Shown here: one piece after another, positions 26,271-62,161 of the stretch
Layout of the letters: every line of letters starts with the position of its first letter
How positions within the stretch are numbered: position 1 is the stretch's first letter
NCBI GenBank assembly: GCA_963713955.1
Contig: OY970216.1
Span: forward strand, 378,252 to 442,251
Direction: 5' to 3'
From: an uncultured bacterium
Lineage (GTDB): Bacteria > Patescibacteriota > Minisyncoccia > UBA6257 > GWB1-50-10
Length of the DNA stretch: 64,000 nt
Program-made: the position numbers and the translations under genes
Notes under the pieces: generated by a model
What the model was told of the DNA's origin: nothing
What the model saw: the letters and a program-made list of their open reading frames with translations, nothing else
Database searches by the model: none

Positions 26271-26300
26271 CAAAAGTTTGAATCCTCCCCTGTGCACTAA
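26271..26300 (+). repeat. degenerate copy l of conserved module
   Basis: CAAAAGTTTGAATCCTCCCCTGTGCACTAAA. Confidence 0.5.
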
Positions 26301-26750: not shown

Positions 26751-26754
26751 CTAG

Positions 26755-26780
26755 AATCGTTCGAACATCGTCCACTACTG
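26755..26780 (+). repeat. conserved module copy a
   Basis: AATCGTTCGAACATCGTCCACTACTG, starting 5 bp beyond the DNPH1 start and lying upstream of the NTase gene. Confidence 0.8.
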
Positions 26781-26864
26781 TGCTGTGCGGTGTACTAGAA
26801 TAATGTGGAATGATCAAGGACGATCTGATTATCCATATTTCCAGAAACGATTTATACTTTAGAT

Positions 26865-27596: not shown

Positions 27597-27636
27597 TTCC
27601 TACCAGCACGATGTTCAATAGTTTAAAGTGTTAGCC

Positions 27637-27664
27637 AAAATCGTTCGAACATCGTCCACTACTG
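27637..27664 (+). repeat. conserved module copy b (5' part; interrupted by IS1595)
   Basis: AAAATCGTTCGAACATCGTCCACTACTG. The 3' part (CCGTGCACTACAAATTGACA) resumes at 28511-28530, after the IS. Confidence 0.8.
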
Positions 27665-28520: not shown

Positions 28521-28530
28521 CAAATTGACA
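28511..28530 (+). repeat. 3' part of interrupted module copy b, carrying the TTGACA -35
   Basis: GTGCACTACAAATTGACA, compared with the consensus GTGCACTAAAATTGACA. Confidence 0.65.
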
Positions 28531-28598
28531 AAAAACATAGAAGTGTGTTATTGTGCTTTTGATTAAAACAGTTCATTCACTTATAAATAGGAGCTATC

Positions 28599-28949
28599 AT
28601 GAACCTCTTTCTTAGCGTCAGTCTTGTTGCGATACTCATTGGATTCGTTTGTGAATACTGGTATTCACACAGAAAGCTTGCATGGCGTATCTGGACTCCG
28701 ATTACCTTCAGTGTAGTAACTCTCCTTGCAGGGTTGACCTCTGTGGTATGTATGACCCTGGGAGTACTTACCAATACCGAATGGAATGCTGTCTCCGGAG
28801 CCGTTATCGTGATTTCCCAAATGAACTTTATGTGGTTTATTTTTATCACGATTTCAACAACGCTTCTCCTTTCCTTTGCGATACTTTCCATGTCAGATGT
28901 GTGGCTCTGGAAAATCAAACATAGGGTTACCAGACGACTACCAATATGA
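28599..28949 (+). CDS. small integral membrane protein (cassette cargo)
   Basis: 116 aa with 3-4 TMs, preceded by a TTGACA -35 that belongs to the interrupted module. Confidence 0.35.
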   Translation: MNLFLSVSLVAILIGFVCEYWYSHRKLAWRIWTPITFSVVTLLAGLTSVVCMTLGVLTNTEWNAVSGAVIVISQMNFMWFIFITISTTLLLSFAILSMSDVWLWKIKHRVTRRLPI

Positions 28950-29096
28950 GATATACGAATCCCTCGACAACTCGTAAACTATCCACTCCGTTAGATAGGC
29001 AATCCACTAACGGAGTTTCCCTTTATAATACAATATATTTCGAAACTTCTATTCCTATACCAAAGTTGATAGACTCATTTTTCGGAAATCTGTCCT

Positions 29097-29124
29097 AAAA
29101 TCGTTCGAACATCGTCCACTCCTG
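29097..29124 (+). repeat. conserved module copy c (exact 28-mer) plus hairpin
   Basis: AAAATCGTTCGAACATCGTCCACTCCTG, then a CGCTGCGCAGTGTGG stem and an extended -10 TGATATAAT at 29152-29160. Confidence 0.85.
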
Positions 29125-29202
29125 CGCTGCGCAGTGTGGGCAAAGAAAAAATGATATAATTCTTGAAAGGCCGATGTGCTTAATTAATCTCATTATAAAA
29201 AC

Positions 29203-29355
29203 ATGGTAAGAGGAAACTTCATTGGCGCGGCGATTGTCGCAATAATCTACACGGTCTATATTTTATGGAATCCGCTTCCACGAACCACAGAAATAATATT
29301 ATTAGTGGTTCTTAATGCTTTAACTATCGTATTGATGGCTTTTGCATTCAGATAA
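29203..29355 (+). CDS. small membrane protein (50 aa), cassette cargo
   Basis: MVRGNFIGAAIVAIIYTVYILWNPLPRTTEIILLVVLNALTIVLMAFAFR. Preceded by module copy c and an extended -10. It is below the ORF-track length cutoff. Confidence 0.3.
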   Translation: MVRGNFIGAAIVAIIYTVYILWNPLPRTTEIILLVVLNALTIVLMAFAFR

Positions 29356-29408
29356 AAAGTTGAATCTCTCAGAGAATCGAGCTGCCGGTTTTAAGCGCGG
29401 CTCAAACA

Positions 29409-29427
29409 CCGTCCACTCCTGTACACC
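29409..29427 (+). repeat. partial (3' half) copy d of conserved module
   Basis: CCGTCCACTCCTGTACACC with the 5' half replaced. It lies just upstream of IS3 copy 1. Confidence 0.6.
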
Positions 29428-29583
29428 AACTTGCCTAAAACTGCACATTTACCTCACTTACCAGAGGGGATTTTTTGTGCTATGATATCGTCAAACATCA
29501 TGAAGAAGTTGGCCTTGTTTGATATTGACTGTTCCGGATAGGAAAATTTAGACACAAAGGTCGGAACAAATTACCATTGTGTC

Positions 29584-29847
29584 ATGGCTAACAAAAAAGG
29601 ATATCGGGTAGCGAAAGAGGTAAAAGCGGAGATTGTCCGCCGCGTGAAGGAAGAAGGCGTCTCCGTCGCAGAAGCGGCAAAAGATGCAGGCGTCCACGAG
29701 ACAACCGTGTATGGATGGCTCGGCGCCGGTGCCACGAGCGCTCCCTCCTGGGGAGAAATCAATCGCCTAAAGAAACAGAATCAGGAACTCTTCGAAGTGA
29801 TCGGTGAACTCACGATCAAGCTGTCCCAGACCCAAAAAAAGAATTGA
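29584..29847 (+). CDS. IS3 transposase OrfA (HTH)
   Basis: 87-aa HTH/leucine-zipper OrfA ending at AAAAAAAG. Confidence 0.8.
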   Translation: MANKKGYRVAKEVKAEIVRRVKEEGVSVAEAAKDAGVHETTVYGWLGAGATSAPSWGEINRLKKQNQELFEVIGELTIKLSQTQKKN

Positions 29848-30626
29848 GCAGGGAAAGGAACGTATCCGCCCTGGCTCGCGCCATGGGTGTCTCGCGCTCA
29901 TCGCTCTATTACGTCGCAACGCAGGACAAGAAGGATTGGGCATTAAAGGTCCGGACGGAGGAGGTGCTTCACGAGCATCCCTCATACGGCTCACGCCGAC
30001 TGGCGATTGCGCTCGGCATCGGCAGACCGAGAGCGCAACGGGTCATGCGGATTTACGGCATCAAGCCCTACCGCAGGCATGGGAGAAAATACAGGAAATC
30101 CAAGGCGGAACGGCACTTCCCGAACCTCCTCCTCGGCATTATGCCATCATATGCGAACCATGTCTGGGCGACGGATTTCACGGAGCTTGTCTTTCACGGG
30201 AAGAAGCTGTACGTATCAACGATCCTTAACCTGTTTACGAGGCAACTGATGGGCGTTCATGTGGCGACCCGGAAGGGATCGACGCTCACCATCCAAACTC
30301 TGGCGAACGCGCTCTTCCATTGCCCGCGACCCGTGATCTTCCATTCTGACAACGGGAGGGAATACGAAGCGAAGGCGTTCATCGCTATGCTTGAGCGCTA
30401 CGGCATCACCATCTCCCGCTCACGCCCCGGATCGCCGTGGGAGAACGGATACCAAGAATCTTTCTACGGAAAATTCAAAATGGATCTTGGCGATCCTAAT
30501 CGGTTCAGATCCTTAGGGGAACTTGTGGCGGAGATCTACCGAACGCTTTGGGAGTACAACCATACAAGAATCCACTCCGCTCTCAGGATGCCGCCTTCGG
30601 TGTTTGCAGAGAAGATAGCAGTGTGA
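29844..30626 (+). CDS. IS3 transposase OrfB (DDE integrase core), -1 frame
   Basis: HSDNGREYEAK, WENGYQESFYGKFK and NHTRIHSAL integrase-core motifs. Frame -1 relative to orfA. Confidence 0.8.
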   Translation: MSRERNVSALARAMGVSRSSLYYVATQDKKDWALKVRTEEVLHEHPSYGSRRLAIALGIGRPRAQRVMRIYGIKPYRRHGRKYRKSKAERHFPNLLLGIMPSYANHVWATDFTELVFHGKKLYVSTILNLFTRQLMGVHVATRKGSTLTIQTLANALFHCPRPVIFHSDNGREYEAKAFIAMLERYGITISRSRPGSPWENGYQESFYGKFKMDLGDPNRFRSLGELVAEIYRTLWEYNHTRIHSALRMPPSVFAEKIAV

Positions 30627-30969
30627 GAGAATGAAAAAACGACGAGAAAACTTGTCGAGTGACTGTCTAAAGAAACCTATCCATCACACCGGCCCAATCA
30701 GTACGAAATAAGAAGTATTTCAAGTCCGACAAGATGGGTCACCGCCACTTGTGGTCAAAGACCCAATGGGTTGAGTTTCTAAAAAACTACTATAAGATCA
30801 AAGAAGCAAGAGTGGTTAGAGCGATTCGAAAAGATGACCTGGTTATAGCTCTTACTAAAAAGTAGATATTATTTTAACTAATCGGAATTTGTCCCTTCCG
30901 TCATTTTCTCCCACTGGCCTGACCCCCATATATTAGACACAAAGGTCGAAGTCAATATACCCTTGTGTC

Positions 30970-31227
30970 ATGAAGAAAACATATCGCACTGCTCCCGAGG
31001 TGAAGGAGCAGATATTGAAGAGAATCAAGGAGGAAGGGATCCCGGTCGTCCAGGCCGCCAAGGAACACGGTCTGAATCCCGCCACCATATACAACTGGCT
31101 GGGAAGGGGCGTGAAAGGCACCCCCACGATCGGTGAACTCGTCCGCCTCAAGCGCCAGAACGAAGAGCTCCTCGCCCTCGTGGGCGAGCTCACCCTGGCC
31201 TCCTCACGCACTCAAAAAAAGCGTTGA
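30970..31227 (+). CDS. IS3 transposase OrfA
   Basis: 85 aa, identical to the 61072-61329 product. Confidence 0.8.
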   Translation: MKKTYRTAPEVKEQILKRIKEEGIPVVQAAKEHGLNPATIYNWLGRGVKGTPTIGELVRLKRQNEELLALVGELTLASSRTQKKR

Positions 31228-32033
31228 TCAAAAAGCAGAAGAAGACGAAGTGGGAACTTGCCCGTGAACTCGGCCTCTCCCGCGCCTCCCTCTACTATGT
31301 CTCGAAACAATCGCCCAAGGATTGGTCGCTCAAGGAAAGGATCATATCAGTCTTGAGAGACCATCCTTCATACGGCTTCAGAAGAGTGGCTTTGGAGCTC
31401 AAGATCAACAAAAAAAGAGCCCAACGGGTGATGAGGCTCTTCGGGATGAAGGCATATCGGAGAAGGGGCAGAAGGCCAAGGAAAACGGGCTTCTCGAGTA
31501 TCCTGTATCCCAATCTCCTTCAGAAGAACTTCCCCAAAGGATTGAACGATATCTGGGTGGCGGACTTCACGTACATCCCGTACCAAGGGAAGTTCCTGTA
31601 TCTCGCCACCGTGATGGATTTGTTTGCGAGGGAGATCGTGGGCTGGGCCGTGATGAATACCCACTCGGTGCCTCTGGTCCTCCAGGCACTCTTCTCCGCG
31701 GCGGAACATCATCCGAGACCCAACATCTTCCACTCGGACAACGGAAGGGAGTATGGCTCAAGGATCTTCACCGGAGCTCTTTTGAACCTCGGCGTCAGGA
31801 TATCGAGATCGAGGAAGTCATCGCCATGGGAGAACGGCTACCAGGAGTCCTTCTACTCCCAGTTCAAGGTGGATCTGGGCGATCCGGAGAGGTTCAAATC
31901 GCTGGGAGAGCTGGTCTACGAGATCCATCGCCTGGTCTGGGACTACAACCACCGGAGAATCCACTCCGCCCTCAGGATGCCGCCTGCACTGTTCTCGAAT
32001 CGCTACCAGAAACTTGTCGAAAAAGTGTCTTAA
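31224..32033 (+). CDS. IS3 transposase OrfB (-1 frame)
   Basis: HSDNGREYGSR...WENGYQESFYSQFK...NHRRIHSAL. Identical to the 61326-62135 product. Confidence 0.8.
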   Translation: MIKKQKKTKWELARELGLSRASLYYVSKQSPKDWSLKERIISVLRDHPSYGFRRVALELKINKKRAQRVMRLFGMKAYRRRGRRPRKTGFSSILYPNLLQKNFPKGLNDIWVADFTYIPYQGKFLYLATVMDLFAREIVGWAVMNTHSVPLVLQALFSAAEHHPRPNIFHSDNGREYGSRIFTGALLNLGVRISRSRKSSPWENGYQESFYSQFKVDLGDPERFKSLGELVYEIHRLVWDYNHRRIHSALRMPPALFSNRYQKLVEKVS

Positions 32034-32078
32034 CTTTGGGGGTCTTTACAATCAGATAGAAAAAGAATCCTTAATGCG

Positions 32079-32381
32079 GTGAGAAGAAGTAAATCTAAAA
32101 GGATAATCATTACGCACGGCACTTATACGTTGCCGGACACCGCGAGATATCTGAAAGCAAATCTAAAAAGTTCAAGTAAGATAATCATCTTCGTGTGCTC
32201 GATGATTCCGCTCGTTGGATTTACTCCGACAGATGCGGGATTCAATATTGGCTATGCGATGGCGAAAACACAGGACTTATCAGAAGGGATCTATGTTTGT
32301 ATGAATGGGAGAATCTTCGCTCCGGAAGAAGTAGTAAAGATCCTTTCCGAGGGGAGATTCGGGTCAATATTCACGAAGTAA
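32079..32381 (+). pseudogene. L-asparaginase-like C-terminal fragment, probably truncated by IS3 copy 2
   Basis: IIITHGTYTLPDTARYL...VCMNGRIFAPEEVVK resembles the asparaginase THGTDT and C-terminal segment. The ORF begins 29 bp after the IS right end and has no N-terminal domain. Confidence 0.4.
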
Positions 32382-32421
32382 AACATACTCTTTATTGCTG
32401 TTTACCTTCTGGAGATTAGCT

Positions 32422-32449
32422 AAAATCGTTCGAACATCGTCCACTCCTG
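32422..32449 (+). repeat. conserved module copy e (exact 28-mer)
   Basis: AAAATCGTTCGAACATCGTCCACTCCTG followed by ACAAAATTGACA (-35 at 32456-32461). Confidence 0.85.
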
Positions 32450-32553
32450 ACAAAATTGACAAATGCTAAATAAAGTGCTATTCTTTTAATAGTTCCTGTT
32501 CGTATGAATAGGTCGTCTCGAAAGAGACAAGAGAACCTCATCTCCACCCTTTC

Positions 32554-32898
32554 ATGGAGATGAGAACATTCACAAGAAGTAATAAAATGCCGGAGGTTAG
32601 TATGGCTAAAGAAAAAATTGAAGCCTTGCCTCAAGTGGGACTGACTCCCGCGCAGTTGATTCTGAAGCTGTATGACTATGTAATCCTCAACTGCAAGAAG
32701 CAGAGCACTTCCAAGGTAAATGCTGGGTTAACGCAATTGATTGCAGCATTAAATTTCGATTACAGGGAAGTTGCTCTTGGACTCTTCCGCTTATACAGAT
32801 ATTGTCAGGACAAGTCGAGGAAAGGTGATTTTAAAGAGGTAGAGAGCATCATAGGTGAGCTCCGCGCTACATGGGCGGAAGCATTCAAGTTATCTTAG
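32554..32898 (+). CDS. FliS-like four-helix protein (flagellar export chaperone family resemblance)
   Basis: LTPAQLILKLYDYVILNCKK...NFDYREVALGLFRLYRYCQDKSRKGDFKEV...LRATWAEAF follows the FliS pattern. The likely start is 32608 (MAKEK). Confidence 0.4.
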   Translation: MEMRTFTRSNKMPEVSMAKEKIEALPQVGLTPAQLILKLYDYVILNCKKQSTSKVNAGLTQLIAALNFDYREVALGLFRLYRYCQDKSRKGDFKEVESIIGELRATWAEAFKLS

Positions 32899-32990
32899 GA
32901 GACAGAGGAAGCAATGTTTCTTGTCTCTATTCTTGGGGGTGGGTCCTACGACTTGCTCCCTCGATTTTTTATAGCTACCCAGAGCTGTTC

Positions 32991-33013
32991 AAAAATCGTT
33001 CACTACTGGGCAC
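32991..33013 (+). repeat. module copy f with internal 11-bp deletion
   Basis: AAAAATCGTT-CACTACTGGGCAC: lacks CGAACATCGTC, exactly between the ATCGTTC/ATCGTCC direct repeats. Followed by TAAAATTGACT. Confidence 0.7.
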
Positions 33014-33018
33014 TAAAA

Positions 33019-33047
33019 TTGACTAGCAACTGGATGTGATTCATAAT
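33019..33047 (+). promoter_or_regulatory. sigma70-like promoter TTGACT-N17-CATAAT driven from module copy f
   Basis: Consensus-like -35 and -10 with 17-bp spacing, 85 bp upstream of the ORF at 33133. Confidence 0.5.
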
Positions 33048-33132
33048 ACTAGCCTGAAGTAGTACTGGGTTTTTATTTCAATTTAGATAAACAACTCATT
33101 TCACAAAACCATAAGGAAAGGAGAATAACGAG

Positions 33133-33546
33133 ATGGGTATAGCATTAACTTTACTCCTGCCTTCAAAGCGTTACAGCAGTAGAGTGTTGAAGCAGCCAGA
33201 TGTTTACTGCCCCGACCGCTTGGAGATGACAAAGGACAACGGAATCTTCGGCCAGTTGATAAAAATATCACACCCGCGGAATGACGGTTCAGGCATTCCC
33301 CTAAAACCCAGCATAAAGTCCCACCCTCTACCCAGTAAGCTGAGGGTTGCCTACTTAACCGAGGATGAAGATGGCGGTCTTCTTTCCACCAGGAAGGATG
33401 GATACCACGAGCCAATGAGGTTTGTGTATGCCAAAGATTTTGCACTTCTCGAGATGCCAGGCAACGCGAGTGATGTCAACAAAGCCATTGTTGCATTCAC
33501 TAAAGCAATGCCCCCCGATACACCACTCTTCTTGTTCTGGCATTAG
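33133..33546 (+). CDS. hypothetical protein (cassette cargo)
   Basis: 137-aa ORF downstream of the module copy f promoter (TTGACT-N17-CATAAT). Confidence 0.3.
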   Translation: MGIALTLLLPSKRYSSRVLKQPDVYCPDRLEMTKDNGIFGQLIKISHPRNDGSGIPLKPSIKSHPLPSKLRVAYLTEDEDGGLLSTRKDGYHEPMRFVYAKDFALLEMPGNASDVNKAIVAFTKAMPPDTPLFLFWH

Positions 33547-33624
33547 TGATGCACAGGCACATGTTCTTATTTCCAGATTTTTGTACAATACCCGTCACAA
33601 GTCCAATGTGGCGGGCCTTTCTTT

Positions 33625-33652
33625 CAAAACCGTTCGAACATCGTCCACTGTG
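33625..33652 (+). repeat. conserved module copy g (terminal copy of island 1)
   Basis: CAAAACCGTTCGAACATCGTCCACTGTG. Confidence 0.75.
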
Positions 33653-33718
33653 GCAGTTTTCTTTCATCTTTACACGAACAAGAATCACTTGTCTTTTGAG
33701 CGAGTTGTTCGAGGCTGT

Positions 33719-39087: not shown

Positions 39088-39235
39088 CTCTAAAATCCTC
39101 CTCGCTTCTCGTCGGAATCAAGCCGCAAAATATCGAACTCAACCTCGTCCGCCAGCTGGCGGAGGCGGATTCGGGATTCAAACATGCGATATTTTGCTCA
39201 TTCCTTCCTCAGGGCTCGGGGATTTTGACGAGATC
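39088..39235 (+). repeat. palindromic intergenic repeat, copy R3
   Basis: AAAATCCTCCTCGCTTCTCGTCGGAAT head. GCAAAATATCG...CGATATTTTGC stem. GCTCATTCCTTCCTCAGGGCTCGGGGATTTTGA tail. Confidence 0.8.
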
Positions 39236-39271
39236 TTCGCGAAACTAACTCAAAAGCAAAAGATTTTCCTG

Positions 39272-39280
39272 TGTTATAAT
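39272..39280 (+). promoter_or_regulatory. extended -10 (TGTTATAAT) upstream of pilin paralog 2
   Basis: TGnTATAAT consensus 10 bp before the ATG at 39290. Confidence 0.4.
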
Positions 39281-39289
39281 AAGAAAACA

Positions 39290-40513
39290 ATGACCTCTCG
39301 CCAATCTTTCACCCTGATTGAGCTCCTCGTAGTCATCGCGATCTTGGCGATCCTCGCGACCGCCGTCGTCCTCGTCTTGAATCCTGCCCAGCTTCTTGCC
39401 CAGGGAAGAGATTCCACGAGACTCTCTGATCTTTCCGCTCTGAACAGCGCCCTCTCCTTATTTCAGGCTGATGCCTATACCCAATCCTTAGGGACTCCTA
39501 ACACAGTCTATATATCAATCCCTGATTCATCATCCACCTGTGGGGACCTGGACCTGCCTGCCTTAGGAGGAGGCTGGGCCTATCACTGTGTTCCAAGCTC
39601 TTCCTCAACAAGAGTAGACGGAACAGGCTGGATTCCCGTGAATCTCACCCTTATTTCATCAGGATCCCCTTTATCCAAGCTCCCCATAGACCCCGTGAAT
39701 ACCACAAGCACTGGACTCTACTATACCTACGTATCAGGAGGCTCCTATGCCTTATCCAGTGCCTTGGAATCACAGAAGTACCTTGTATCCACCGCAGCAA
39801 CAGATAATGGCTATGATCCAGGAAGATACGAAACAGGTTCTGACCTTTCCCTTATTGGAAGAAGTGAAGGATTGGTAGGATGGTGGCCCCTCGATGGAGA
39901 CCCAGGGGACAGGAGCGGGAATGGGAATGGGGGGACGCCGATTAACAATCCCGCGTGGACTACGGGGAAGATAAATCAAGCCATTAGTCTTAACGGATCA
40001 AACAATAACTTGGGGAATTACCTCAATATCCCAAGTGTGAGCAATCTCAATATAACTAACTCAGTTACCCTTGCGGCATGGGTTAACAGAAATACTAGCG
40101 GCGCGGATTTACAGGGGGTAATAACGAAATCTAGTCCTGCAACGAGAGCCTACAGCCTCACAACCCAATATAATACCCCAACGTATCAAGTACAGTTGGC
40201 GATCAACGGCACGTTTTGTCCCTACATTGCTCCCACCAATTATAACCAATGGCATTACGTTGCCGGCGTTTACGACGGGACAAATGAAAACGTTTACTAT
40301 GACGGTGTTTTGGTCCAGACGTGTCCTAAAACCGGTTCGATTAACGTCACGAGCGATCCTCTTTATATTGGACTTTACAATTATGCTATCGGCACTGAAG
40401 GTTCGTCTTGGTATGGATATCGCCCCTTCGGCGGCCTGATCGATGATGCCCGTGTCTATAATCGCGCCCTCTCAGCAGCTGAGATCCAAGCTATCTACAA
40501 CGCACAGAAATAG
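39290..40513 (+). CDS. type IV pilin-like/LamG fusion (paralog 2)
   Basis: MTSRQS|FTLIELLVV signal and a LamG C-terminus (IDDARVYNRALSAAEIQAIYNAQK). The ORF-track start at 39194 runs through repeat R3 and is rejected. Confidence 0.7.
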   Translation: MTSRQSFTLIELLVVIAILAILATAVVLVLNPAQLLAQGRDSTRLSDLSALNSALSLFQADAYTQSLGTPNTVYISIPDSSSTCGDLDLPALGGGWAYHCVPSSSSTRVDGTGWIPVNLTLISSGSPLSKLPIDPVNTTSTGLYYTYVSGGSYALSSALESQKYLVSTAATDNGYDPGRYETGSDLSLIGRSEGLVGWWPLDGDPGDRSGNGNGGTPINNPAWTTGKINQAISLNGSNNNLGNYLNIPSVSNLNITNSVTLAAWVNRNTSGADLQGVITKSSPATRAYSLTTQYNTPTYQVQLAINGTFCPYIAPTNYNQWHYVAGVYDGTNENVYYDGVLVQTCPKTGSINVTSDPLYIGLYNYAIGTEGSSWYGYRPFGGLIDDARVYNRALSAAEIQAIYNAQK

Positions 40514-46851: not shown

Positions 46852-48183
46852 ATGAATCCCGGAAGCAGAGTAAGCTTTACCCTGATCGAGCTCCTGGTCG
46901 TGACCCCGATACGAAAGGCGTTCCACGCCTTCATACGGGGTAAATCGCCATCCTCTTCTCCCAGAGCTTCTTTTACCTTGATTGAATTGCTTGTGGTGAT
47001 TGCAATCCTCGCCGTCTTAGCCACCGCCGTCGTCTTGGTCTTGAACCCTGCCCAGCTATTGGCCCAGGGAAGAGATTCAACTCGTTTGTCTGATCTTTCA
47101 GCCCTGAATAGTGCCCTCTCCCTCTTCCAAGCAGATCAATATACCCAGTCCTTAGGGACTCCAAATACCCTCTATATATCCGTTCCCGATACCACGTCCA
47201 CCTGTGCCAATCTGGGACTGTCTTCTCCTCCTATAGGATGGGCCTATCACTGTGTTCCAAGCTCTTCCTCAACAAGAGTAGACGGAACAGGCTGGATTCC
47301 CGTGAATCTTACCCTCCTATCATCAGGATCCCCTTTATCCAAGCTCCCGATAGACCCCGTGAATACCACAAGCACAGGATTCTACTATACCTACGTATCA
47401 GGAGGCTCCTATGCCTTATCCAGTGCCTTGGAATCACAGAAATACCTCAGTTCTACTGCATCCCAGGACCAAGGCTATGATCCTGGGAAGTATGAGATCG
47501 GTTCTGACCTATCCCTTATTGGAAGGAGTGAGGGATTAGTAGGATGGTGGCCTTTGGATGGGAGTCCCAATGATCAGAGCGGAAACAACAACAATGGGAC
47601 GTGGTTTGGTTCCATGATCGGAGGTTCTTACTATACGGGAGGGAAGATCAATCAGGCCGGGAACTTCAATGGGACGGATGACTACGTGAGTGTGGGGAAT
47701 TCACCAATTTTTGATATGGGTACAGGAAATATGACCATTAGCGCCTGGTTGAGTTCTTACACAGATCCTAGCAATTATGGTAATGTTGTTGGCAAGATAA
47801 GCTGGAACGGAGTTCTTGGTTACGGTATTGTAAATGCCTATGATACTGGCACCAACTGTGTTATGGGGTATATGGCGAAGAACGGCATCAGCGATCGTGT
47901 GGTAAACGATTCAACTGCCTATTGCCCATCGTCTGGGTCCTGGCACCTTTATACCACCGTGTTTAATCGCGTGTCTAACACGTTAGCTCTCTATGTTGAT
48001 GGGAGTTTGGTGAATAGTAAGAGTATTGCCGGTTATTCCGGCGTCGGCTTTACGAACACAGCTGCTGTTACGATCGGCGTCTATGATAATAATTACCTAA
48101 AATCGAATATCGACGATGTCCGCATCTACAACCGCACCCTCTCCGCCGCGGAGATTCAAGCTATCTACAACGCCCAGAAGTAA
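46852..48183 (+). CDS. type IV pilin-like/LamG fusion (paralog 3) with duplicated N-terminal FTLIELLVV segment
   Basis: MNPGSRVS FTLIELLVV TPIRKAFHAFIRGKSPSSSPRAS FTLIELLVVIAILAVLA. The 5' ~650 bp is near-identical to paralog 2. LamG C-terminus. Confidence 0.65.
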   Translation: MNPGSRVSFTLIELLVVTPIRKAFHAFIRGKSPSSSPRASFTLIELLVVIAILAVLATAVVLVLNPAQLLAQGRDSTRLSDLSALNSALSLFQADQYTQSLGTPNTLYISVPDTTSTCANLGLSSPPIGWAYHCVPSSSSTRVDGTGWIPVNLTLLSSGSPLSKLPIDPVNTTSTGFYYTYVSGGSYALSSALESQKYLSSTASQDQGYDPGKYEIGSDLSLIGRSEGLVGWWPLDGSPNDQSGNNNNGTWFGSMIGGSYYTGGKINQAGNFNGTDDYVSVGNSPIFDMGTGNMTISAWLSSYTDPSNYGNVVGKISWNGVLGYGIVNAYDTGTNCVMGYMAKNGISDRVVNDSTAYCPSSGSWHLYTTVFNRVSNTLALYVDGSLVNSKSIAGYSGVGFTNTAAVTIGVYDNNYLKSNIDDVRIYNRTLSAAEIQAIYNAQK

Positions 48184-55101: not shown

Positions 55102-55875
55102 ATGAAAAAAGGATTTTCTCTCATTGAGATGCTCATCTACATTGCCGTCTTTTCCATAGTCTCAGTTTTTTTGATCGCCATCCTTACCACGTTCACGAGG
55201 ATTGAGGTGAGGCAGACCGCCGTGAACGATGTGAACGGCCAGATAAGTTTTGTCTCGAATGTCGTGCAGCAGCTGGTGCAGAATTCGAGCCTGGTTAACA
55301 TGACCGATGGAGTTACAACCTCGACCTTGAATTTAAGAACGGCGTCGTCGTCGCAAGATCCGACTCTCGTTTACGCGAGCGGTACTGCTCTCTACTTAGA
55401 GCAGGGTTCGGCCGCGTCTGTGGCCCTGACCAATGCGAACGTTAACGTGACCAATTTTTCGGTGACTCCCTACGAAAATCCCGGCGGTGCGACCGTGGTC
55501 CAGATGAATTTGTCTCTAACCTACAACAACCCCAATCCGGCGAGCCAGTTTGCCCAATCGATGCAAATCGCGGTCGCGAAAACTTCCGCTGCGACGTTCG
55601 ATTCTTCTCTCTATCCAGCGAGTTCAACGAGCTTGAATTTTGGTTCGGCCGTGAATCCTTGGGGGAACGGATACTTCAGCGGGAACCTCAACGTTTCCGG
55701 CGAAGTATTCTCGGGTACCGGAGTTTCGGGAGCGACGGCCCTCAAGGCAAACGGTAACGTCGGCTTTTCGAATTCCAGCCAAGGCTTGATACTCATGGCT
55801 CCCGGCGGAACCTGCTTTTTGGTGAGTGTAAATGCCTCGGGGACGCTCTCGACCGTGACCGCCGCTTGCCCGTAG
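55102..55875 (+). CDS. type IV pilin/pseudopilin (canonical Gly at -1)
   Basis: MKKG|FSLIEMLIYIAVFSIVSVFLIAIL prepilin N-methylation motif. Confidence 0.6.
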   Translation: MKKGFSLIEMLIYIAVFSIVSVFLIAILTTFTRIEVRQTAVNDVNGQISFVSNVVQQLVQNSSLVNMTDGVTTSTLNLRTASSSQDPTLVYASGTALYLEQGSAASVALTNANVNVTNFSVTPYENPGGATVVQMNLSLTYNNPNPASQFAQSMQIAVAKTSAATFDSSLYPASSTSLNFGSAVNPWGNGYFSGNLNVSGEVFSGTGVSGATALKANGNVGFSNSSQGLILMAPGGTCFLVSVNASGTLSTVTAACP

Positions 55876-56118: not shown

Positions 56119-57870
56119 ATGCCTTCCGAAAAGAGGGTGTGCCAAAACTGCAAGAAAGAATTCACGGTCGAGCCGGATGATTTCGGTTTCTACGAAAAAA
56201 TGCGGGTGCCGCCACCCACTTTTTGCCCGGAGTGTCGGATGATTCGGCGCATGAGTTGGCGTAATGAGAATGCTCTTTATCGTCGCAAGTGTGATCTCTG
56301 CGAGAAAACGATCATTACGATGTATGCGCCCGAATCTCCTTTTCAAGTGTATTGCCATGAGTGTTGGACGTCTGATCGCTGGGACGGAAAGGATTACGGC
56401 GGGGAGTGTGATTGGAGCAAGCCTTTTTTCGTTCAATTTCGGAGCCTTCTCGAGAAAGTTCCGCTTGTCTTGGCTGATATCAAGGGGACGATGGTGAACA
56501 GTGAGTATGGGAACTATAACGGCAGCTGTAAGAACTGCTATATGTGCTTTTCGAGCATCTTGAGCGAAGATTCTTTATATTGCACTTCTTCCCAGGAGCT
56601 AAAACAATGTCTGGATTCTATTTATCTCCAAAACGGAGAGTTGTGCTACGAAGCGATTGACAGTGAAAAAAACTACCGGTGTTCGTTTATAGAAAAAACG
56701 AAGGAAAGCACCGACTCTTCCTTTCTTTCCGGCTGCTCGAATGTGTCGCATTGCTTCATGAGTGCTAATTTGAGGAACAAGAATTATGTGTTCAGGAACG
56801 AGCAGTTGGCTGCCGAAGAGTACGCGGCTAGAATGGATAAAATCGACTTCGGGGGTTTCATCGCCATAGAGAAACTCAAGGGAGAATTCACCGAGCTCAA
56901 GAAATCGGCGCTCTGCAAATATGCAGAGATGAAAAACTCGGTAGATGCCACGGGCAACAACATCACGAATTCGAAGCACGTTCGCTATTCTTTCACCGTT
57001 GACGAATCGGAAAACGTGAAATACAGCATAAGGGCTCTCAAGGGCTGTCGGGATGTATACGATTGCCAAGGCATCGTCTCCGGAGAACTTGCCTGTGAAG
57101 GATCGGGGTGCGGATTCTCTTCGCAGAATGCTCTTTTTTCCTTTTCCTTTGACGTATGCAAGGACATTCAGTATTGTGCTATGTGCCGTGACTGCTCGGA
57201 TTGCTTCGGATGCGTCGGCCTCAAGAACCAGAGTTATTGCATTTTCAACAGGCAATGTTCAAAAGAGGAATATCAAAAGCTGGTTCCCAAAATCATCGAC
57301 CACATGGGTGCGATGCCATACGTGGATTCGAAGGGAAGAGCGTACAAATACGGGGAGTTTTTCCCTCAGGACCTTTCCCTTTTTGCCTACAACGAGACCC
57401 TTGCTCAAGATTATTTTCCGCTGGATAAAGAAACCGCCGAGGCACGGGGGTATCGCTGGAGGGAAGAGGGGAAAAGAGAATATTCCGTTACCCTCCATCC
57501 GAAAGATATCCCCGATCGGATAAAAGACGTCGATGACTCGATACTGGGTGAAGTCATCGGCTGTGAACATGCGGATTCAAAGAACGTATGCAACGAACGA
57601 TGTTCAACGGCTTTCAAGCTCGCCCCTCAGGAACTCCAGTTCTATAGACAGTGCAATATCCCGATTCCTCATCTTTGCCCAAACTGCCGTTACGCCATCC
57701 GCCTCAAGCAAAGAAATCCGCTCAAACTTTGGCATCGCACTTGCATGTGTAACCTCAAGACCCACACCCACGGAGCAGAGAAATGTCTTAATGAATTTGA
57801 AACCAGTTACGCTCCCGACCGCCCCGAGATCGTGTATTGTGAAAATTGTTATAATAGTGAAGTAGCATGA
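56119..57870 (+). CDS. large Cys-rich protein with repeated zinc-ribbon-like modules
   Basis: 583 aa with ~45 Cys. F-Y-x5-P-x-P-x2-C-P-x-C-R-x3-R modules at the N-terminus (FGFYEKMRVPPPTFCPECRMIRR) and the C-terminus (QFYRQCNIPIPHLCPNCRYAIRL). Confidence 0.5.
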   Translation: MPSEKRVCQNCKKEFTVEPDDFGFYEKMRVPPPTFCPECRMIRRMSWRNENALYRRKCDLCEKTIITMYAPESPFQVYCHECWTSDRWDGKDYGGECDWSKPFFVQFRSLLEKVPLVLADIKGTMVNSEYGNYNGSCKNCYMCFSSILSEDSLYCTSSQELKQCLDSIYLQNGELCYEAIDSEKNYRCSFIEKTKESTDSSFLSGCSNVSHCFMSANLRNKNYVFRNEQLAAEEYAARMDKIDFGGFIAIEKLKGEFTELKKSALCKYAEMKNSVDATGNNITNSKHVRYSFTVDESENVKYSIRALKGCRDVYDCQGIVSGELACEGSGCGFSSQNALFSFSFDVCKDIQYCAMCRDCSDCFGCVGLKNQSYCIFNRQCSKEEYQKLVPKIIDHMGAMPYVDSKGRAYKYGEFFPQDLSLFAYNETLAQDYFPLDKETAEARGYRWREEGKREYSVTLHPKDIPDRIKDVDDSILGEVIGCEHADSKNVCNERCSTAFKLAPQELQFYRQCNIPIPHLCPNCRYAIRLKQRNPLKLWHRTCMCNLKTHTHGAEKCLNEFETSYAPDRPEIVYCENCYNSEVA

Positions 57871-57947: not shown

Positions 57948-57975
57948 AAGTTCGAATTCTCTCCTGTGCACTAAA
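57948..57975 (+). repeat. degenerate copy k of conserved module
   Basis: AAAGTTCGAATTCTCTCCTGTGCACTAAA. Confidence 0.55.
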
Positions 57976-57981
57976 TGTTTT

Positions 57982-57990
57982 TGGTATAAT
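57982..57990 (+). promoter_or_regulatory. extended -10 (TGGTATAAT) after module copy k
   Basis: TGnTATAAT 10 bp before the ORF at 58001. Confidence 0.4.
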
Positions 57991-58000
57991 TAAAATACTG

Positions 58001-58204
58001 ATGATCGCATTAATAAGAAGATATAAAAAAGCGTTCATTGACGGCACCTTGATTGCTCTTCTAATACTGATTACGGTCATCTTCGGCGGGAAAAGTAAGA
58101 CAAGCGATCAACAAGCACAACTTGAGGCAGCATTGCAATCAGCTGTCTCAAGTAGCGTTGTGAATTCATCGACTGTTACTAATCAGTCATCTGCTGCCAA
58201 GTAA
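58001..58204 (+). CDS. small TM protein, hypothetical
   Basis: 67 aa with a single TM. Confidence 0.25.
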   Translation: MIALIRRYKKAFIDGTLIALLILITVIFGGKSKTSDQQAQLEAALQSAVSSSVVNSSTVTNQSSAAK

Positions 58205-58217
58205 TAACAAGCATGAA

Positions 58218-58898
58218 ATGCCAGTTGCCGAGGATCTATATAAAAAGATTAAGGGGGTAATATACGATTTGGACGGGACTATTATCTCAACTCAAAACTT
58301 GCACGAAAATGCTTGGCTTTCCACCGCTAATAAATTTGGGATAAAACTTACAAGAAGAAAGTTACTAGATCAGCGCGGTATATCCGATAAAGCCTTCGCC
58401 TCGGCTGTTTTTACAGGTGACAAAAAGAAATTGATTGACGATTTTGTGAACGCAAAAAGAGAATATGTGAGTGAGAATATAGATCAGATCAGTGTTTTCC
58501 CAGATGGGATGAAAGCGTTGGATGAATTAACCAAGAGGAACTTTAGGGTTTGGATTAGTACTTCCTCCGGAAAAAATTTTGTTAAGAAAATACTGGATAT
58601 CTTTCCGGAGTTAAAGAAATATGGAATTGTTTGGCGGGAGATGTATCTAGGAGAAAAGCCATCGCCAGAAATCTTGGACCTAACAGTCAAAAAGATGGGT
58701 TTGAAAAAAAGTGAAGTTATTTATGTAGGAGATGCTCTCAATGATTATGAAACGAGTGTTAATGGGGGTGTAAAGTTTGTATACTTCTGCCCTAAGGAAA
58801 ACAGTAAGGATTCCAGAATTCCCCAAAACATTCCAGTAATTTCTAATCACGAGGAGATTATGATATATTTGGAGGATATTAATAAAGATGGCAATTAG
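58218..58898 (+). CDS. HAD-superfamily hydrolase (beta-phosphoglucomutase/phosphatase-like)
   Basis: DLDGTIISTQ motif I and a GDALNDYE motif IV region. Confidence 0.7.
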   Translation: MPVAEDLYKKIKGVIYDLDGTIISTQNLHENAWLSTANKFGIKLTRRKLLDQRGISDKAFASAVFTGDKKKLIDDFVNAKREYVSENIDQISVFPDGMKALDELTKRNFRVWISTSSGKNFVKKILDIFPELKKYGIVWREMYLGEKPSPEILDLTVKKMGLKKSEVIYVGDALNDYETSVNGGVKFVYFCPKENSKDSRIPQNIPVISNHEEIMIYLEDINKDGN

Positions 58899-59274
58899 CG
58901 GTTGGATTTTAACATTCGGCATATCCGCATTTGGAGGATATGTTTTTCAGAACCTTTTCTCTGGAGAATATGAGGGCCATAGAGTTGAACGATCACTGCA
59001 CTTTCAGGTTCGGGGATATTATGTCCATATTCATCATTGGATCTACTCCACCTTGATAATCATAATTCTCATTTGTCTGAACGAGGTTAACCCTATTATT
59101 TTGGGCGTGCTCTCGGGTTTTATTATTCAAGGATTGACCTACCGTGATCGTTTCATAGTGGCTTATCCTAAAGATAAGTTTCACGAAATCTATGACAAGT
59201 GGAAACCGAAAGATGAACATTATAAAAAACCGTTTATTAATAAATTATTGGGGCTGAAAAGATCTGGAGCATAG
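58888..59274 (+). CDS. small membrane protein, hypothetical
   Basis: 128 aa with 3 TMs. Its stop abuts module copy h. Confidence 0.35.
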   Translation: MAISGWILTFGISAFGGYVFQNLFSGEYEGHRVERSLHFQVRGYYVHIHHWIYSTLIIIILICLNEVNPIILGVLSGFIIQGLTYRDRFIVAYPKDKFHEIYDKWKPKDEHYKKPFINKLLGLKRSGA

Positions 59275-59306
59275 AATTGTTCGAACATCGTCCACTCCTG
59301 TGCACC
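59275..59306 (+). repeat. conserved module copy h
   Basis: GAATTGTTCGAACATCGTCCACTCCTGTGCAC. Confidence 0.8.
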
Positions 59307-59327
59307 AAGACTATCTTCAGTCGGTTA

Positions 59328-59732
59328 CTATTCAGTTTTCGTCGTTTCGATATCCATGACAACATCGTGGATGCGCGTTATAGTTCCAAGAAGCTGCTCC
59401 TTAATTCCCTCCAAAGCTTTTAAAAGAGTTGCTCGTTTGTATTCGTCCTCTGTTAGACTGACTAGAATAGGATTAGGGGCACCACTGAATAGGGGACTTT
59501 CGGTCGGCTTTTTCTCCCGGCTGAATCTTTTTGCAATGGGCATGCCAGCAACCTCCTTTTCCAATTCTTCGATGATGCGGATGGCCTCATTGAGTTTAGC
59601 CCGTTCGGCCAATTCTTCAGCTCTCAATTTTGCCGCTTTGAAAACGGGGTCAGTTGGTTCCCATTGCGGCACTCCCTCTATTTTGTTCACGTTTTCAAAA
59701 CCAGGGGATTCCGGCTTTATTTTCTCGCTCAT
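59328..59732 (-). CDS. hypothetical protein
   Basis: 134 aa, charged and helical. No motif. Confidence 0.4.
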   Translation of the reverse strand: MSEKIKPESPGFENVNKIEGVPQWEPTDPVFKAAKLRAEELAERAKLNEAIRIIEELEKEVAGMPIAKRFSREKKPTESPLFSGAPNPILVSLTEDEYKRATLLKALEGIKEQLLGTITRIHDVVMDIETTKTE

Positions 59733-59766
59733 AGAAGAAACATATCACATTTTGGCATATCCGGTC

Positions 59767-59794
59767 AAAATCGTTCGAACATCGTCCACTCCTG
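59767..59794 (+). repeat. conserved module copy i (exact 28-mer)
   Basis: AAAATCGTTCGAACATCGTCCACTCCTG, followed by a GAGTATGTACTC palindrome and TATAAT at 59854-59859. Confidence 0.85.
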
Positions 59795-59866
59795 CGTACC
59801 AAGGTTGAGTATGTACTCAAGTATACCCACCTTACGAGGCGGACTTTTTACTATATAATCATACCG

Positions 59867-60601
59867 ATGGCTACTAAAGAAGTGCGAATTTTCAAAGATG
59901 CGGAGGGATTAAGCGAGTTCGCGGCGGAGATGTTTATTGAGCTATGTAACAACGCAGTTTCAGTGAAAAACCGGTTCTCGGTTGCGCTTTCAGGAGGCAC
60001 TACGCCTCGGCGACTGTATGAATTACTCTCGGGAGATAAATTCAAGGATAAAGTTGATTGGAGCAAAATCCATATTTTCTTTGGTGATGAGCGGTTTGTT
60101 CCCTCAGATGATCCACAAAGTAATTTCCGCATGACGCGAGAGACACTCCTCAGTAAAGTTCCCATTCCAATCGACAACATTCATGCAATAGCCACTGAAA
60201 GTATTAGTCCAGAGGAAGCAGCGAAGAAATATTCAACCGAAATGGAATTGTTTTTCAATAACAAGTTGCCAGTTTTTGATTTGATACTTCTTGGCGTGGG
60301 ATCGGACGGGCACGTCGCGTCGCTCTTCCCTGGGAGCACGGTGGACACCAAGGTTATAAGAAAATCCATGGCCGTCATTACCAATGCACCCAAGCCGCCT
60401 TCAACACGTTTATCTTTGACCTTAGAGGCAATCAATTCGTCTCTCAATGTGATTATGTTAGTTGCCGGGAAAGACAAAGCTGACGTCGTACGAAAAGTCA
60501 TCAATGACAAAACCCAAGAGAAGCTTGTTCTCGCAACACAAATTAAGCCTCAAAAAAGTATCACTTGGATTTTAGACAAGGCAGCAGCAGAATTTGTCTA
60601 G
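59867..60601 (+). CDS. pgl: 6-phosphogluconolactonase
   Basis: FSVALSGGTTPRRLYELL and GVGSDGHVASLFPG motifs of the Pgl/NagB family. Confidence 0.8.
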   Translation: MATKEVRIFKDAEGLSEFAAEMFIELCNNAVSVKNRFSVALSGGTTPRRLYELLSGDKFKDKVDWSKIHIFFGDERFVPSDDPQSNFRMTRETLLSKVPIPIDNIHAIATESISPEEAAKKYSTEMELFFNNKLPVFDLILLGVGSDGHVASLFPGSTVDTKVIRKSMAVITNAPKPPSTRLSLTLEAINSSLNVIMLVAGKDKADVVRKVINDKTQEKLVLATQIKPQKSITWILDKAAAEFV

Positions 60602-60635
60602 GAAAAAAGTTCGAACGTCCTCTACTCGGGTACTG
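60602..60635 (+). repeat. degenerate module copy j
   Basis: GAAAAAAGTTCGAACGTCCTCTACTC, then the GAGTATATACTCAAGTATACCCACC box shared with copy i. Confidence 0.55.
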
Positions 60636-60655
60636 TTTGAGTATATACTCAAGTA

Positions 60656-60681
60656 TACCCACCAAGGAGGTGGGTGTTTTT
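60656..60681 (+). terminator. rho-independent terminator-like hairpin
   Basis: CCCACC-aagga-GGTGGG followed by TGTTTTTG. Confidence 0.5.
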
Positions 60682-60768: not shown

Positions 60769-61038
60769 GTGAATGTCATGGCTGATCATTCTGATTATCT
60801 AATGAGAGAGGATTACTGCCGCCATATTTGTCACAAACCAGGACGTCGTTTCGTGTTCCATCTGATGCCATGTTGCAAAAAATGTGAACATTGCGGCCGT
60901 CAAATCAAAAAAGAAAGACACTCTGACCATGAGGAGAGGTGCAGAGACAGAAGAGTAAGGGTGGTGAAACTTGAAGGACAACTTCTCTACAAAGCGGATT
61001 ATTCGGATGTCTACTTTGGCCTGACCCCCATATATTAG
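60769..61038 (+). CDS. small Cys/His-rich protein; 3' end runs into IS3 copy 3 (possibly truncated)
   Basis: 89 aa with CRHICH...CCKKCEHCG. The last ~7 codons lie inside the IS left end. Confidence 0.3.
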   Translation: MNVMADHSDYLMREDYCRHICHKPGRRFVFHLMPCCKKCEHCGRQIKKERHSDHEERCRDRRVRVVKLEGQLLYKADYSDVYFGLTPIY

Positions 61039-61071
61039 ACACAAAGGTCGAAGTCAATATACCCTTGTGTC

Positions 61072-61329
61072 ATGAAGAAAACATATCGCACCGCTCCCGA
61101 GGTGAAGGAGCAGATATTGAAGAGAATCAAGGAGGAAGGGATCCCGGTCGTCCAGGCCGCCAAGGAACACGGTCTGAATCCCGCCACCATATACAACTGG
61201 CTGGGAAGGGGCGTGAAAGGCACCCCCACGATCGGTGAACTCGTCCGCCTCAAGCGCCAGAACGAAGAGCTCCTCGCCCTCGTGGGCGAGCTCACCCTGG
61301 CCTCCTCACGCACTCAAAAAAAGCGTTGA
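61072..61329 (+). CDS. IS3 transposase OrfA
   Basis: Identical to the 30970-31227 product. Confidence 0.8.
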   Translation: MKKTYRTAPEVKEQILKRIKEEGIPVVQAAKEHGLNPATIYNWLGRGVKGTPTIGELVRLKRQNEELLALVGELTLASSRTQKKR

Positions 61330-62135
61330 TCAAAAAGCAGAAGAAGACGAAGTGGGAACTTGCCCGTGAACTCGGCCTCTCCCGCGCCTCCCTCTACTAT
61401 GTCTCGAAACAATCGCCCAAGGATTGGTCGCTCAAGGAAAGGATCATATCAGTCTTGAGAGACCATCCTTCATACGGCTTCAGAAGAGTGGCTTTGGAGC
61501 TCAAGATCAACAAAAAAAGAGCCCAACGGGTGATGAGGCTCTTCGGGATGAAGGCATATCGGAGAAGGGGCAGAAGGCCAAGGAAAACGGGCTTCTCGAG
61601 TATCCTGTATCCCAATCTCCTTCAGAAGAACTTCCCCAAAGGATTGAACGATATCTGGGTGGCGGACTTCACGTACATCCCGTACCAAGGGAAGTTCCTG
61701 TATCTCGCCACCGTGATGGATTTGTTTGCGAGGGAGATCGTGGGCTGGGCCGTGATGAATACCCACTCGGTGCCTCTGGTCCTCCAGGCACTCTTCTCCG
61801 CGGCGGAACATCATCCGAGACCCAACATCTTCCACTCGGACAACGGAAGGGAGTATGGCTCAAGGATCTTCACCGGAGCTCTTTTGAACCTCGGCGTCAG
61901 GATATCGAGATCGAGGAAGTCATCGCCATGGGAGAACGGCTACCAGGAGTCCTTCTACTCCCAGTTCAAGGTGGATCTGGGCGATCCGGAGAGGTTCAAA
62001 TCGCTGGGAGAGCTGGTCTACGAGATCCATCGCCTGGTCTGGGACTACAACCACCGGAGAATCCACTCCGCCCTCAGGATGCCGCCTGCACTGTTCTCGA
62101 ATCGCTACCAGAAACTTGTCGAAAAAGTGTCTTAA
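61326..62135 (+). CDS. IS3 transposase OrfB (-1 frame)
   Basis: Identical to the 31224-32033 product. Confidence 0.8.
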   Translation: MIKKQKKTKWELARELGLSRASLYYVSKQSPKDWSLKERIISVLRDHPSYGFRRVALELKINKKRAQRVMRLFGMKAYRRRGRRPRKTGFSSILYPNLLQKNFPKGLNDIWVADFTYIPYQGKFLYLATVMDLFAREIVGWAVMNTHSVPLVLQALFSAAEHHPRPNIFHSDNGREYGSRIFTGALLNLGVRISRSRKSSPWENGYQESFYSQFKVDLGDPERFKSLGELVYEIHRLVWDYNHRRIHSALRMPPALFSNRYQKLVEKVS

Positions 62136-62161
62136 CTTTGGGGGTCTTTACACAGAAAAAT

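Follow-up and report, generated by a model that had tools for sequence, protein, structure and literature searches.

The described systems closest to the locus reported here are integrons, tandem integrative elements at tRNA genes, the composite staphylococcal cassette chromosome (SCC) islands and gene modules moved by Xer enzymes. The locus lies in a 64,000-nt stretch (the window) of contig OY970216.1 from an uncultured, Parcubacteria-type member of the Patescibacteria, a group of host-dependent bacteria with tiny genomes whose way of gaining accessory functions is poorly understood. In the window a short, linear repeat, which comes in a 33-nt form (the C site) and a shorter form (V), bounds small genes in two islands. 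We find that these sites, which bound small gene cassettes in Patescibacteria, are best characterized as attachment-type repeats derived from tRNA-Leu.

Comparison with integrons reveals arrays of units that usually hold one gene apiece, with functions unrelated to one another, and that are closed by a conserved, recombination-type repeat; the repeats all face one way. It also reveals a distinct first site V that stands at the left edge of most arrays much as attI does, and arrays without an adjacent integrase that recall CALINs (attC clusters without an integrase). The repeat here, however, is linear and 33 nt long, has no R''/L''-L'/R' hairpin, and its GTTCGAA is not GTTRRRY. There is no adjacent IntI, and we found no recombinase domain in the open reading frames (ORFs) flanking either island, in the other window ORFs scanned or in the annotation of contig L041. 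Site orientation is the same throughout and the majority of units contain a single ORF, but ∼30% of the ORFs are reversed, many have their own -10 box, a promoter of their own is present in many units, and the site comes from a tRNA-Leu 3' end. With no hairpin, no GTTRRRY core and only ∼33 nt conserved between unrelated flanks, integron attC was ruled out: the system works like an integron but, having neither an attC hairpin nor IntI, is not one.

Tandem tRNA-associated elements and cis-mobilizable elements (CIMEs) share with the locus direct repeats, taken from the 3' part of a tRNA, that bound successive units, several of them without an integrase; the V pattern here likewise matches the 3' end of tRNA-Leu genes, and C is this sequence with 5 nt added. 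The two differ in that the units in our arrays are only 0.3-1.4 kb long and mostly single genes, with no integrase-bearing element (no unit encodes an integrase) and no intact tRNA anchor (ARAGORN called none in the window, L010 or L017). In addition, the 5-nt insertion in the C site would disrupt the tRNA if incorporated. In the SCC composite islands of staphylococci, with direct repeats of the integration site sequence (ISS) and Ccr acting in trans, short direct repeats of the integration site again bound arrays of units, some of them recombinase-free, but SCC units are kilobases long, sit at rlmH (orfX) and use a known large serine recombinase, and none was found here.

Xer modules (pdif modules, and integrative mobile elements exploiting Xer, IMEX, at dif) are recombinase-free gene modules with sites of ∼28 nt that a housekeeping enzyme moves. 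A dif-type site is built from a pair of inverted 11-bp arms separated by a 6-bp spacer, and in pdif modules the sites are inverted, whereas the repeats here are all direct and have no dyad symmetry beyond GTTCGAAC. When we inspected the consensus directly for two inverted ∼11-bp arms with a 6-8-bp spacer, the only dyads were GTTCGAAC and GYGCRC, 20 bp apart and with unrelated arms, and there was no lox-type dyad either. Repetitive extragenic palindromes (REP), bacterial interspersed mosaic elements (BIME) and miniature inverted-repeat transposable elements (MITE) would be recognized by a palindromic hairpin, or by terminal inverted repeats with a target duplication, and by genome-wide intergenic spread. 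The repeat has no hairpin or inverted repeat, and in the window its copies occur in two islands only and on one strand.

A 33-nt direct repeat restricted to two low-GC islands

A previous sequence-only reading of the window had noted a recurring 28-mer. We find that this 28-mer is the core of the longer linear C site, with the consensus aAAATCGTTCGAACATCGTCCACTCCTGYGCAC(TA) in an alignment of 40 copies from the window and related contigs. Conservation sets in abruptly at an A-run on the left and fades past about position +29 on the right, and the flanks are unrelated. The short form V (∼22 nt) lacks both the 5-nt CATCG and the left arm AAAATC, which is nearly invariant among C sites. The window contains 13 repeat copies, every one on the + strand and inside one of two low-GC stretches, 26.3-33.7 kb (island 1) and 57.9 kb to at least 60.7 kb (island 2). 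A profile search of the window returned strong C copies at 26753, 27637, 29097, 32422, 33626, 59273 and 59767 and degenerate ones at 29398, 32981 and 60603. The island cassettes have a GC content of 0.38-0.45, compared with ∼0.505 for the core; the ∼50 kb of core genes, nearly all of them on the + strand, contain no copy. Chance cannot account for the copies, the expectation being essentially zero: the 28-mer of one copy (h, below) matches 4 times with up to 3 mismatches (0.00 expected), and a degenerate 19-mer 11 times (1.1 expected).

Our best reading of the repeat is a recombination (attachment) site rather than a gene or an RNA. Folding of the 40 copies gave no consistent hairpin, there is no terminal inverted repeat or target-site duplication at the repeat, and no consistent reading frame runs through it. 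Rfam contains no family that matches at gathering score, only noise at relaxed E-values, and ARAGORN detects no tRNA or tmRNA in the whole window. A linear site without a hairpin would fit a protein-binding site in double-stranded DNA, and the 33-mer is almost unchanged between genomes whose common Cys-rich gene has only ∼65% DNA identity. Several other candidates were rejected. A coding sequence or leader peptide could be proposed from the stop triplet found at -5 in 19 of 41 copies, yet this triplet rarely ends a long ORF. The reverse-strand reading as a Shine-Dalgarno (SD) motif followed by ATG and MFERF is unsupported because the SD-like part is the variable part. The consensus shows no TTCGAA-like mirror motif to the right of the site, as symmetric half-sites of a large serine recombinase would have, and apparent pairs around TTCGAA in diverged copies fall in different columns and form no consistent stem. 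An 18-mer of the repeat is absent from IMG/VR, phage and plasmid collections gave no significant matches, and a full-text literature search with the 15-nt core GTTCGAACATCGTCC, together with topic searches, returned no description of the repeat.

The site matches the 3' end of tRNA-Leu

The V form matches the last 22 nt of tRNA-Leu genes and reads as a tRNA from G53 on, with the T-loop TTCGAAT, the 3' strand of the T-stem, the acceptor 3' strand CCYGYGC and the discriminator A. The C site aligns to the same end if a 5-nt insertion (CATCG) is allowed after GTTCGAA. We scanned a viral collection with the degenerate V pattern GTTCGARTCCTNTCCYGYGCAC and obtained matches on seven contigs. In four of them the matching stretch is the terminal 22 nt of a tRNA-Leu gene that ARAGORN calls, and in the remaining three the same tRNA 3' half is present with no gene called. 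An example of a viral tRNA match, on L039, reads GCGCGGG...GTTCGAGTCCTGTCCCGCGCACCA. Contig L029 begins within a tRNA-Leu-like 3' end that has its T-stem (GGAGG/CCTCT) intact, and a C-like repeat follows ∼190 nt downstream of this end. V is the left-most site in all four arrays with a visible left edge. The V sites of four arrays (window 26276, window 57950, L017 158 and L010 13879) have only GTTCGAATCCTNTCCYGYGCAC in common, and their flanks are unrelated. These alignments indicate that the repeat derives from the 3' end of tRNA-Leu, a classic source of attachment sites.

Related arrays in other genomes

An exact 19-mer scan of a metagenome collection identified 15 contigs, from independent metagenomes of SPRUCE-type peat, Hainich groundwater and Trout Bog. 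Most array contigs have a GC content of ∼47-54% and carry 2-5 sites spaced ∼290-960 bp apart. Site orientation is uniform within each array contig, as it is for all 13 copies in the window, and the chance probability of ∼30 consecutive same-orientation calls is near 1e-9. In the window, L017 and L010 this orientation is that of the adjoining core genes. The segments between sites are mostly occupied by one ORF, with unrelated functions (NUDIX, GrpB, HD, HAD, small membrane proteins), and the contents are almost wholly different from one array to another. Several ORFs begin 13-20 nt past a site behind a TGnTATAAT box, and are thus leaderless, and stop at most 2 nt from the next site.

A scan of GTDB representatives returned six single matches, about the number expected by chance. 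Judging from the similarity of their flanks, we accept the matches in L003 and L006 as real and attribute the remaining four to chance. One match, in L002, lies ∼1 kb from a large serine recombinase and was treated as chance: its context (TonB-dependent receptor, LacI, MFS, GH9) is not patescibacterial, the match does not extend beyond the 19-mer, and ∼4 chance matches are expected in that scan. We found no close relatives of this recombinase, and none on the source contig. A lone full-length C site (35-nt match, 97%) is located between divergent alpha/beta-hydrolase genes on L018 (9022-9053), a contig of 58% GC whose other genes include those for enolase and an M19 dipeptidase. Low-GC arrays are thus not the only setting of the repeat, which is perhaps not limited to a single lineage either.

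Organization of island 2 and the junctions around pgl

Four sites, k (V-type), h and i (canonical C) and j (degenerate C), delimit a three-gene unit, a reverse-strand ORF and the 6-phosphogluconolactonase gene pgl in island 2:

57950-57973, + strand: copy k, V-type site GTTCGAATTCTCTCCTGTGCAC at the left edge of island 2, differing from the V consensus by 2 mismatches
57976-59271, + strand: unit 1, GC 0.376, with a 67-aa ORF (58001-58204), a HAD phosphatase (58218-58898; PF13419, 1e-25) and a 128-aa membrane ORF (58888-59274)
59273-59305, + strand: copy h, canonical C (nhmmer E 6.8e-11)
59328-59732, - strand: unit 2, a 134-aa ORF with no Pfam match
59767-59799, + strand: copy i, canonical C (nhmmer E 4.4e-11)
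59805-59831, + strand: box copy 1, TTGAGTATGTACTCAAGTATACCCACC, a 16-nt near-palindrome
59867-60601, + strand: unit 3, pgl (PF01182, 3e-71), cassette GC 0.438
60603-60634, + strand: copy j, degenerate C (AAAAAAGTTCGAACGTCCTCTACTCGGGTAC; nhmmer E 2.8e-4), starting 1 nt past the pgl stop
60637-60680, + strand: box copy 2, with the perfect 16-nt palindrome TTGAGTATATACTCAA
60769-64000, + strand: long low-GC ORF (GC 0.43-0.44), running off the window

The sequence-only reading had described island 2 as one repeated module in four copies, k, h, i and j. All four are present at the places it gave, the bracketed genes (67-aa ORF, HAD phosphatase, 128-aa membrane ORF, reverse-strand 134-aa ORF and pgl) are as it listed them, and each boundary is formed by the same repeat on the same strand. 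Its view that i is exact and the rest degenerate depends on the query: with the 28-mer of h, h is exact and i has 2 mismatches, and with a 22-nt core i has none and h has 1. Copy j is indeed degenerate (22 of 33 aligned columns are identical to i), but k belongs to the distinct shorter class without the 5 nt. A promoter-like box, TGGTATAAT, directly follows k. The TAG stop of the 128-aa ORF falls in the left edge of h, and the promoter-like -35 element (TTGACC) of the 134-aa ORF is made partly of the left edge of i. Island 2 may extend past the window, given that GC is low in the ORF starting at 60769 as well.

Sites i and j, on either side of pgl, share more than the repeat. The motif GAGTAT(G/A)TACTCAAGTATACCCACC, which had been noted as common to both, occurs exactly twice in the window (59807 and 60639; 0 expected). 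Aligning the i junction with the j junction, as had been proposed, recovered a long imperfect duplicate of ∼85 nt in which 65 of 89 aligned columns are identical. The similarity is uneven, with 22 of 33 columns identical in the site part and 27 of 28 in the box TTGAGTAT(G/A)TACTCAAGTATACCCACC. Box copy 1 is followed by a decayed hairpin with a T-run and then by the -10 box of pgl (TATAAT); on the + strand there is nothing for this hairpin to terminate. The second box overlaps a good, intrinsic-terminator-like hairpin (60655-60677, with a T-run) directly after pgl, which is probably the pgl terminator. A direct duplication around pgl had been proposed from these features. The imperfect ∼85-nt repeats do flank the gene, but we found no evidence of its insertion or excision. 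The pattern resembles what an inserted segment would look like if it were bordered by imperfect direct duplicates and recombination had taken place within the box or close to it, and suggests that the recombining partners shared a longer, ∼85-nt block, because the i/j similarity runs beyond the site through the box and the hairpin. The palindrome box, which i and j alone possess, could just as well serve pgl and the next gene as a common operator, or be part of the terminator region of pgl.

The best named relatives of Pgl are from outside the Patescibacteria (Acidobacteria, Elusimicrobia, Nitrospirae and similar; 41-47% identity), consistent with a foreign origin of the gene. Its closest homolog (58% identity) is encoded on L029, ∼1.5 kb downstream of the tRNA-Leu-like 3' end described above. 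Exact-protein look-ups returned only contigs of the same strain (L022, L027 and L028). As a check for synteny without pgl, we examined the large Cys-rich protein with multiple CxxC motifs encoded to the left of island 2 (56119-57870): its closest relatives are only 62% identical, stand in another gene order and have no motif, and those at up to 62% identity are annotated as Patescibacteria, Paceibacteria and Jorgensenbacteria. The protein is widespread in Parcubacteria and belongs to no Pfam family; one relative encodes four tandem paralogs (L023 771-7871).

Organization of island 1

Island 1 begins with a V site and continues with an array of C sites:

26276-26297, + strand: V-type site GTTTGAATCCTCCCCTGTGCAC, left edge of island 1
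26304-26750, - strand: deoxyribosyltransferase gene, between this V site and the first C
26753-33653, + strand: C-site array, with sites at 26753, 27637, 29097, 29398 (degenerate), 32422, 32981 (degenerate) and 33626

The units between the C sites contain a nucleotidyltransferase, an IS1595-like transposase together with a 116-aa membrane ORF, a 50-aa membrane ORF, two IS3 copies with an asparaginase fragment, a FliS-like ORF and a 137-aa ORF. L010 carries the 50-aa membrane-protein gene as well, its TGATATAAT promoter included (window 29137-29359, L010 12529-12756; 86% DNA identity), and the core genes of the two genomes are far more diverged than this gene.

A conserved, structured-looking noncoding element with three hairpins lies downstream of rpsI (25914-26032) and again on L029 (92-205). 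In both genomes a terminator precedes it and a V- or C-like site lies on its other side. In this two-sequence alignment, 10 of 25 predicted pairs keep pairing via two-sided changes. The sole Rfam signal is ylbH-leader, which stays below threshold (31.9 bits, cut-off 50).

Proposed mechanism and alternative explanations

We favor the reading that the repeats are attachment sites left by serial site-specific insertion of small integrase-less cassettes, because they are tRNA-derived, occur in two length forms, are directly oriented, are restricted to low-GC accessory DNA and number one per unit; the chance that this reading is correct seems to us about even. In the scheme we propose, small circular DNA units, each with one gene or short operon and one C site, would recombine with a V or C site resident in the chromosome, and the crossover would fall in the shared tRNA-derived right part (TCC NNN CC YGYGCAC). 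After each insertion the resident site would lie to the left of the new unit and a C site to its right, and repeated insertion would build up V - unit - C - unit - C in a single orientation, an order that the scheme reproduces for four arrays. The recombinase would not be carried by the units and would act in trans, and the C left arm would be a cassette-borne binding site, which would explain its strong conservation. Mobility, the crossover position and the trans-acting enzyme are what we infer here.

Such a system would be functionally integron-like and formally closer to the accretion of integrase-less elements at a tRNA attachment site. More tentatively, and with the odds in our view somewhat against so broad a claim, the arrays may represent an undescribed gene-capture system of Patescibacteria (candidate phyla radiation, CPR), in which single-gene cassettes are stacked at pseudo-tRNA-Leu landing pads via a linear 33-bp site and a trans-acting recombinase: a functional integron analogue with different site chemistry, present across peat, groundwater and lake lineages. 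If so, it would be a second, structurally different solution to the integron problem. It would explain the movement of pgl, HAD phosphatases, NUDIX hydrolases and nucleotide-salvage enzymes among lineages that have little else in common, and the 33-mer would be a simple tag for the flexible gene pool of Patescibacteria in metagenomes.

Several observations weigh against insertion at attachment sites. Pfam detects no tyrosine or serine recombinase among the ∼45 of the larger window ORFs that were scanned, nor is there one in the precomputed Pfam annotation of L041, which covers 2.2-15.2 kb of the window, or on any array-bearing contig, and no unit contains an integrase. A tRNA followed by an array is not what we see, because no intact tRNA adjoins the V sites in the window, L010 and L017 according to ARAGORN; the 5' strand of the T-stem is missing upstream of every V, and the tRNA body is absent. 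In L007 a V site is located 95 nt to the right of the last C, ∼30% of unit ORFs are oriented opposite to the sites, and the searchable data, in which the exact-protein look-ups met only the same strain, contain no variant that lacks pgl or has an empty site. The 50-aa gene has opposite orientations relative to its flanking sites in the window and in L010. In L010 its homology gives out ∼70-75 nt before the site on either side; in the window it begins at most ∼10 nt from the left C and ends ∼40 nt before the right C. This pattern is not predicted if every cassette strictly has one site, and it fits better with partly separate histories of sites and genes.

The flipped 50-aa gene and the L010 homology that ends well short of the sites also speak for the alternative that the 33-mer is a small non-autonomous repeat (REP- or MITE-like, or a tRNA-derived mini-element) spreading into intergenic DNA of recently acquired regions, with its orientation set by replication and the genes never having been mobile units. 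Site orientation does track core-gene and replication direction in the window, L017 and L010, single copies such as that on L018 exist, and no recombinase is linked to any array. Against this, a hairpin, terminal inverted repeats and a target-site duplication are all absent, and we know of no transposase that moves a 33-nt unit without a hairpin. Moreover, copies in the window are confined to two islands, with none in the ∼50 kb of core, and one site per gene between tightly packed ORFs is unlike random spread. We regard this explanation as unlikely. Even less probable, in our judgment, is a regulatory or insulating DNA signal, that is, a protein site that blocks read-through or controls the promoters of accessory genes and is kept in the direction of transcription. 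Many copies do stand right after a + strand stop and 3-7 nt upstream of the extended -10 of a leaderless gene, and all are co-oriented with the dominant transcription; the i/j box resembles an operator, and j precedes the pgl terminator. Yet the gap to the next promoter or start varies from 13 to >130 nt, the + orientation is kept beside reverse-strand genes and between convergent genes, and the site is absent from core promoters and terminators. The origin from the tRNA-Leu 3' end and the two length forms would also go unexplained.

The repeats might instead act as portable anchors of homology. Following natural uptake of DNA, genes would be swapped or inserted by homologous recombination between the 33-nt linkers, with no dedicated recombinase. 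At ∼30 nt the near-identical sites come near the shortest length that RecA-dependent recombination can use. ComEC and several type IV pilin-like proteins are encoded in the window, the units at i and j share ∼85 nt, and no recombinase was found. A neutral 33-nt linker, though, would not stay near-invariant where a core gene is only ∼65% identical, and recombination of this kind would also invert and delete segments and would impose no single orientation. Attachment sites recognized by a protein typically show what is seen here: a sharp left edge, a V/C dimorphism and an origin from a tRNA. We give homology anchors little chance.

Insertion sequences and neighboring genes

The IS3-family insertion sequence (IS) downstream of island 2 was tested for an orfA (HTH) and an orfB (rve/DDE) in overlapping frames and for terminal inverted repeats TG...CA. 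We found HTH_Tnp_1 and rve domains and the ends TGGCCTGACCCCC / TGTAAAGACCCCC:

61017-62152, + strand: IS3-family copy 3, ends TGGCCTGACCCCC...GGGGGTCTTTACA, with orfA (HTH_Tnp_1) and orfB (rve)

This element had been placed immediately downstream of the module and at its edge. It does begin ∼350 nt past the j box, but inside an ORF and not at a module boundary: it interrupts the ORF starting at 60769, whose frame is open to the window end once the IS and 1 or 4 nt are removed. Copy 3 is an unrelated insertion and is not needed to explain the repeats. It differs from IS3 copy 2 (30915-32050) by 1 mismatch, and the transposase of IS3 copy 1 (29547-30700) has ∼55% protein identity to those of copies 2 and 3. 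In island 1, a 100-aa fragment right after IS3 copy 2 (32079-32381) aligns with no more than the central part of the asparaginase N-terminal domain; it probably represents a gene cut short by the IS. The IS1595-like transposase (zinc ribbon and DDE_Tnp_IS1595; 27677-28477, reverse strand) lies inside one repeat-bounded unit.

The window also encodes a DNA-uptake-type toolkit, relevant to how cassettes might arrive, that comprises ComEC and pilin-like proteins with an N-terminal methylation motif, three of them with Laminin_G_3:

2304-3728, 15249-16430, 39194-40513, 46852-48183 and 55102-55875: ComEC and pilin-like genes

In two independent Logan assemblies of the strain, contigs both start at about window position 2190, between mnmA (977-2194) and ComEC. 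Finally, the left end of IS3 copy 1 has 89% identity with one end of the peat contig L007 (2321-2426), an end that adjoins another repeat array.

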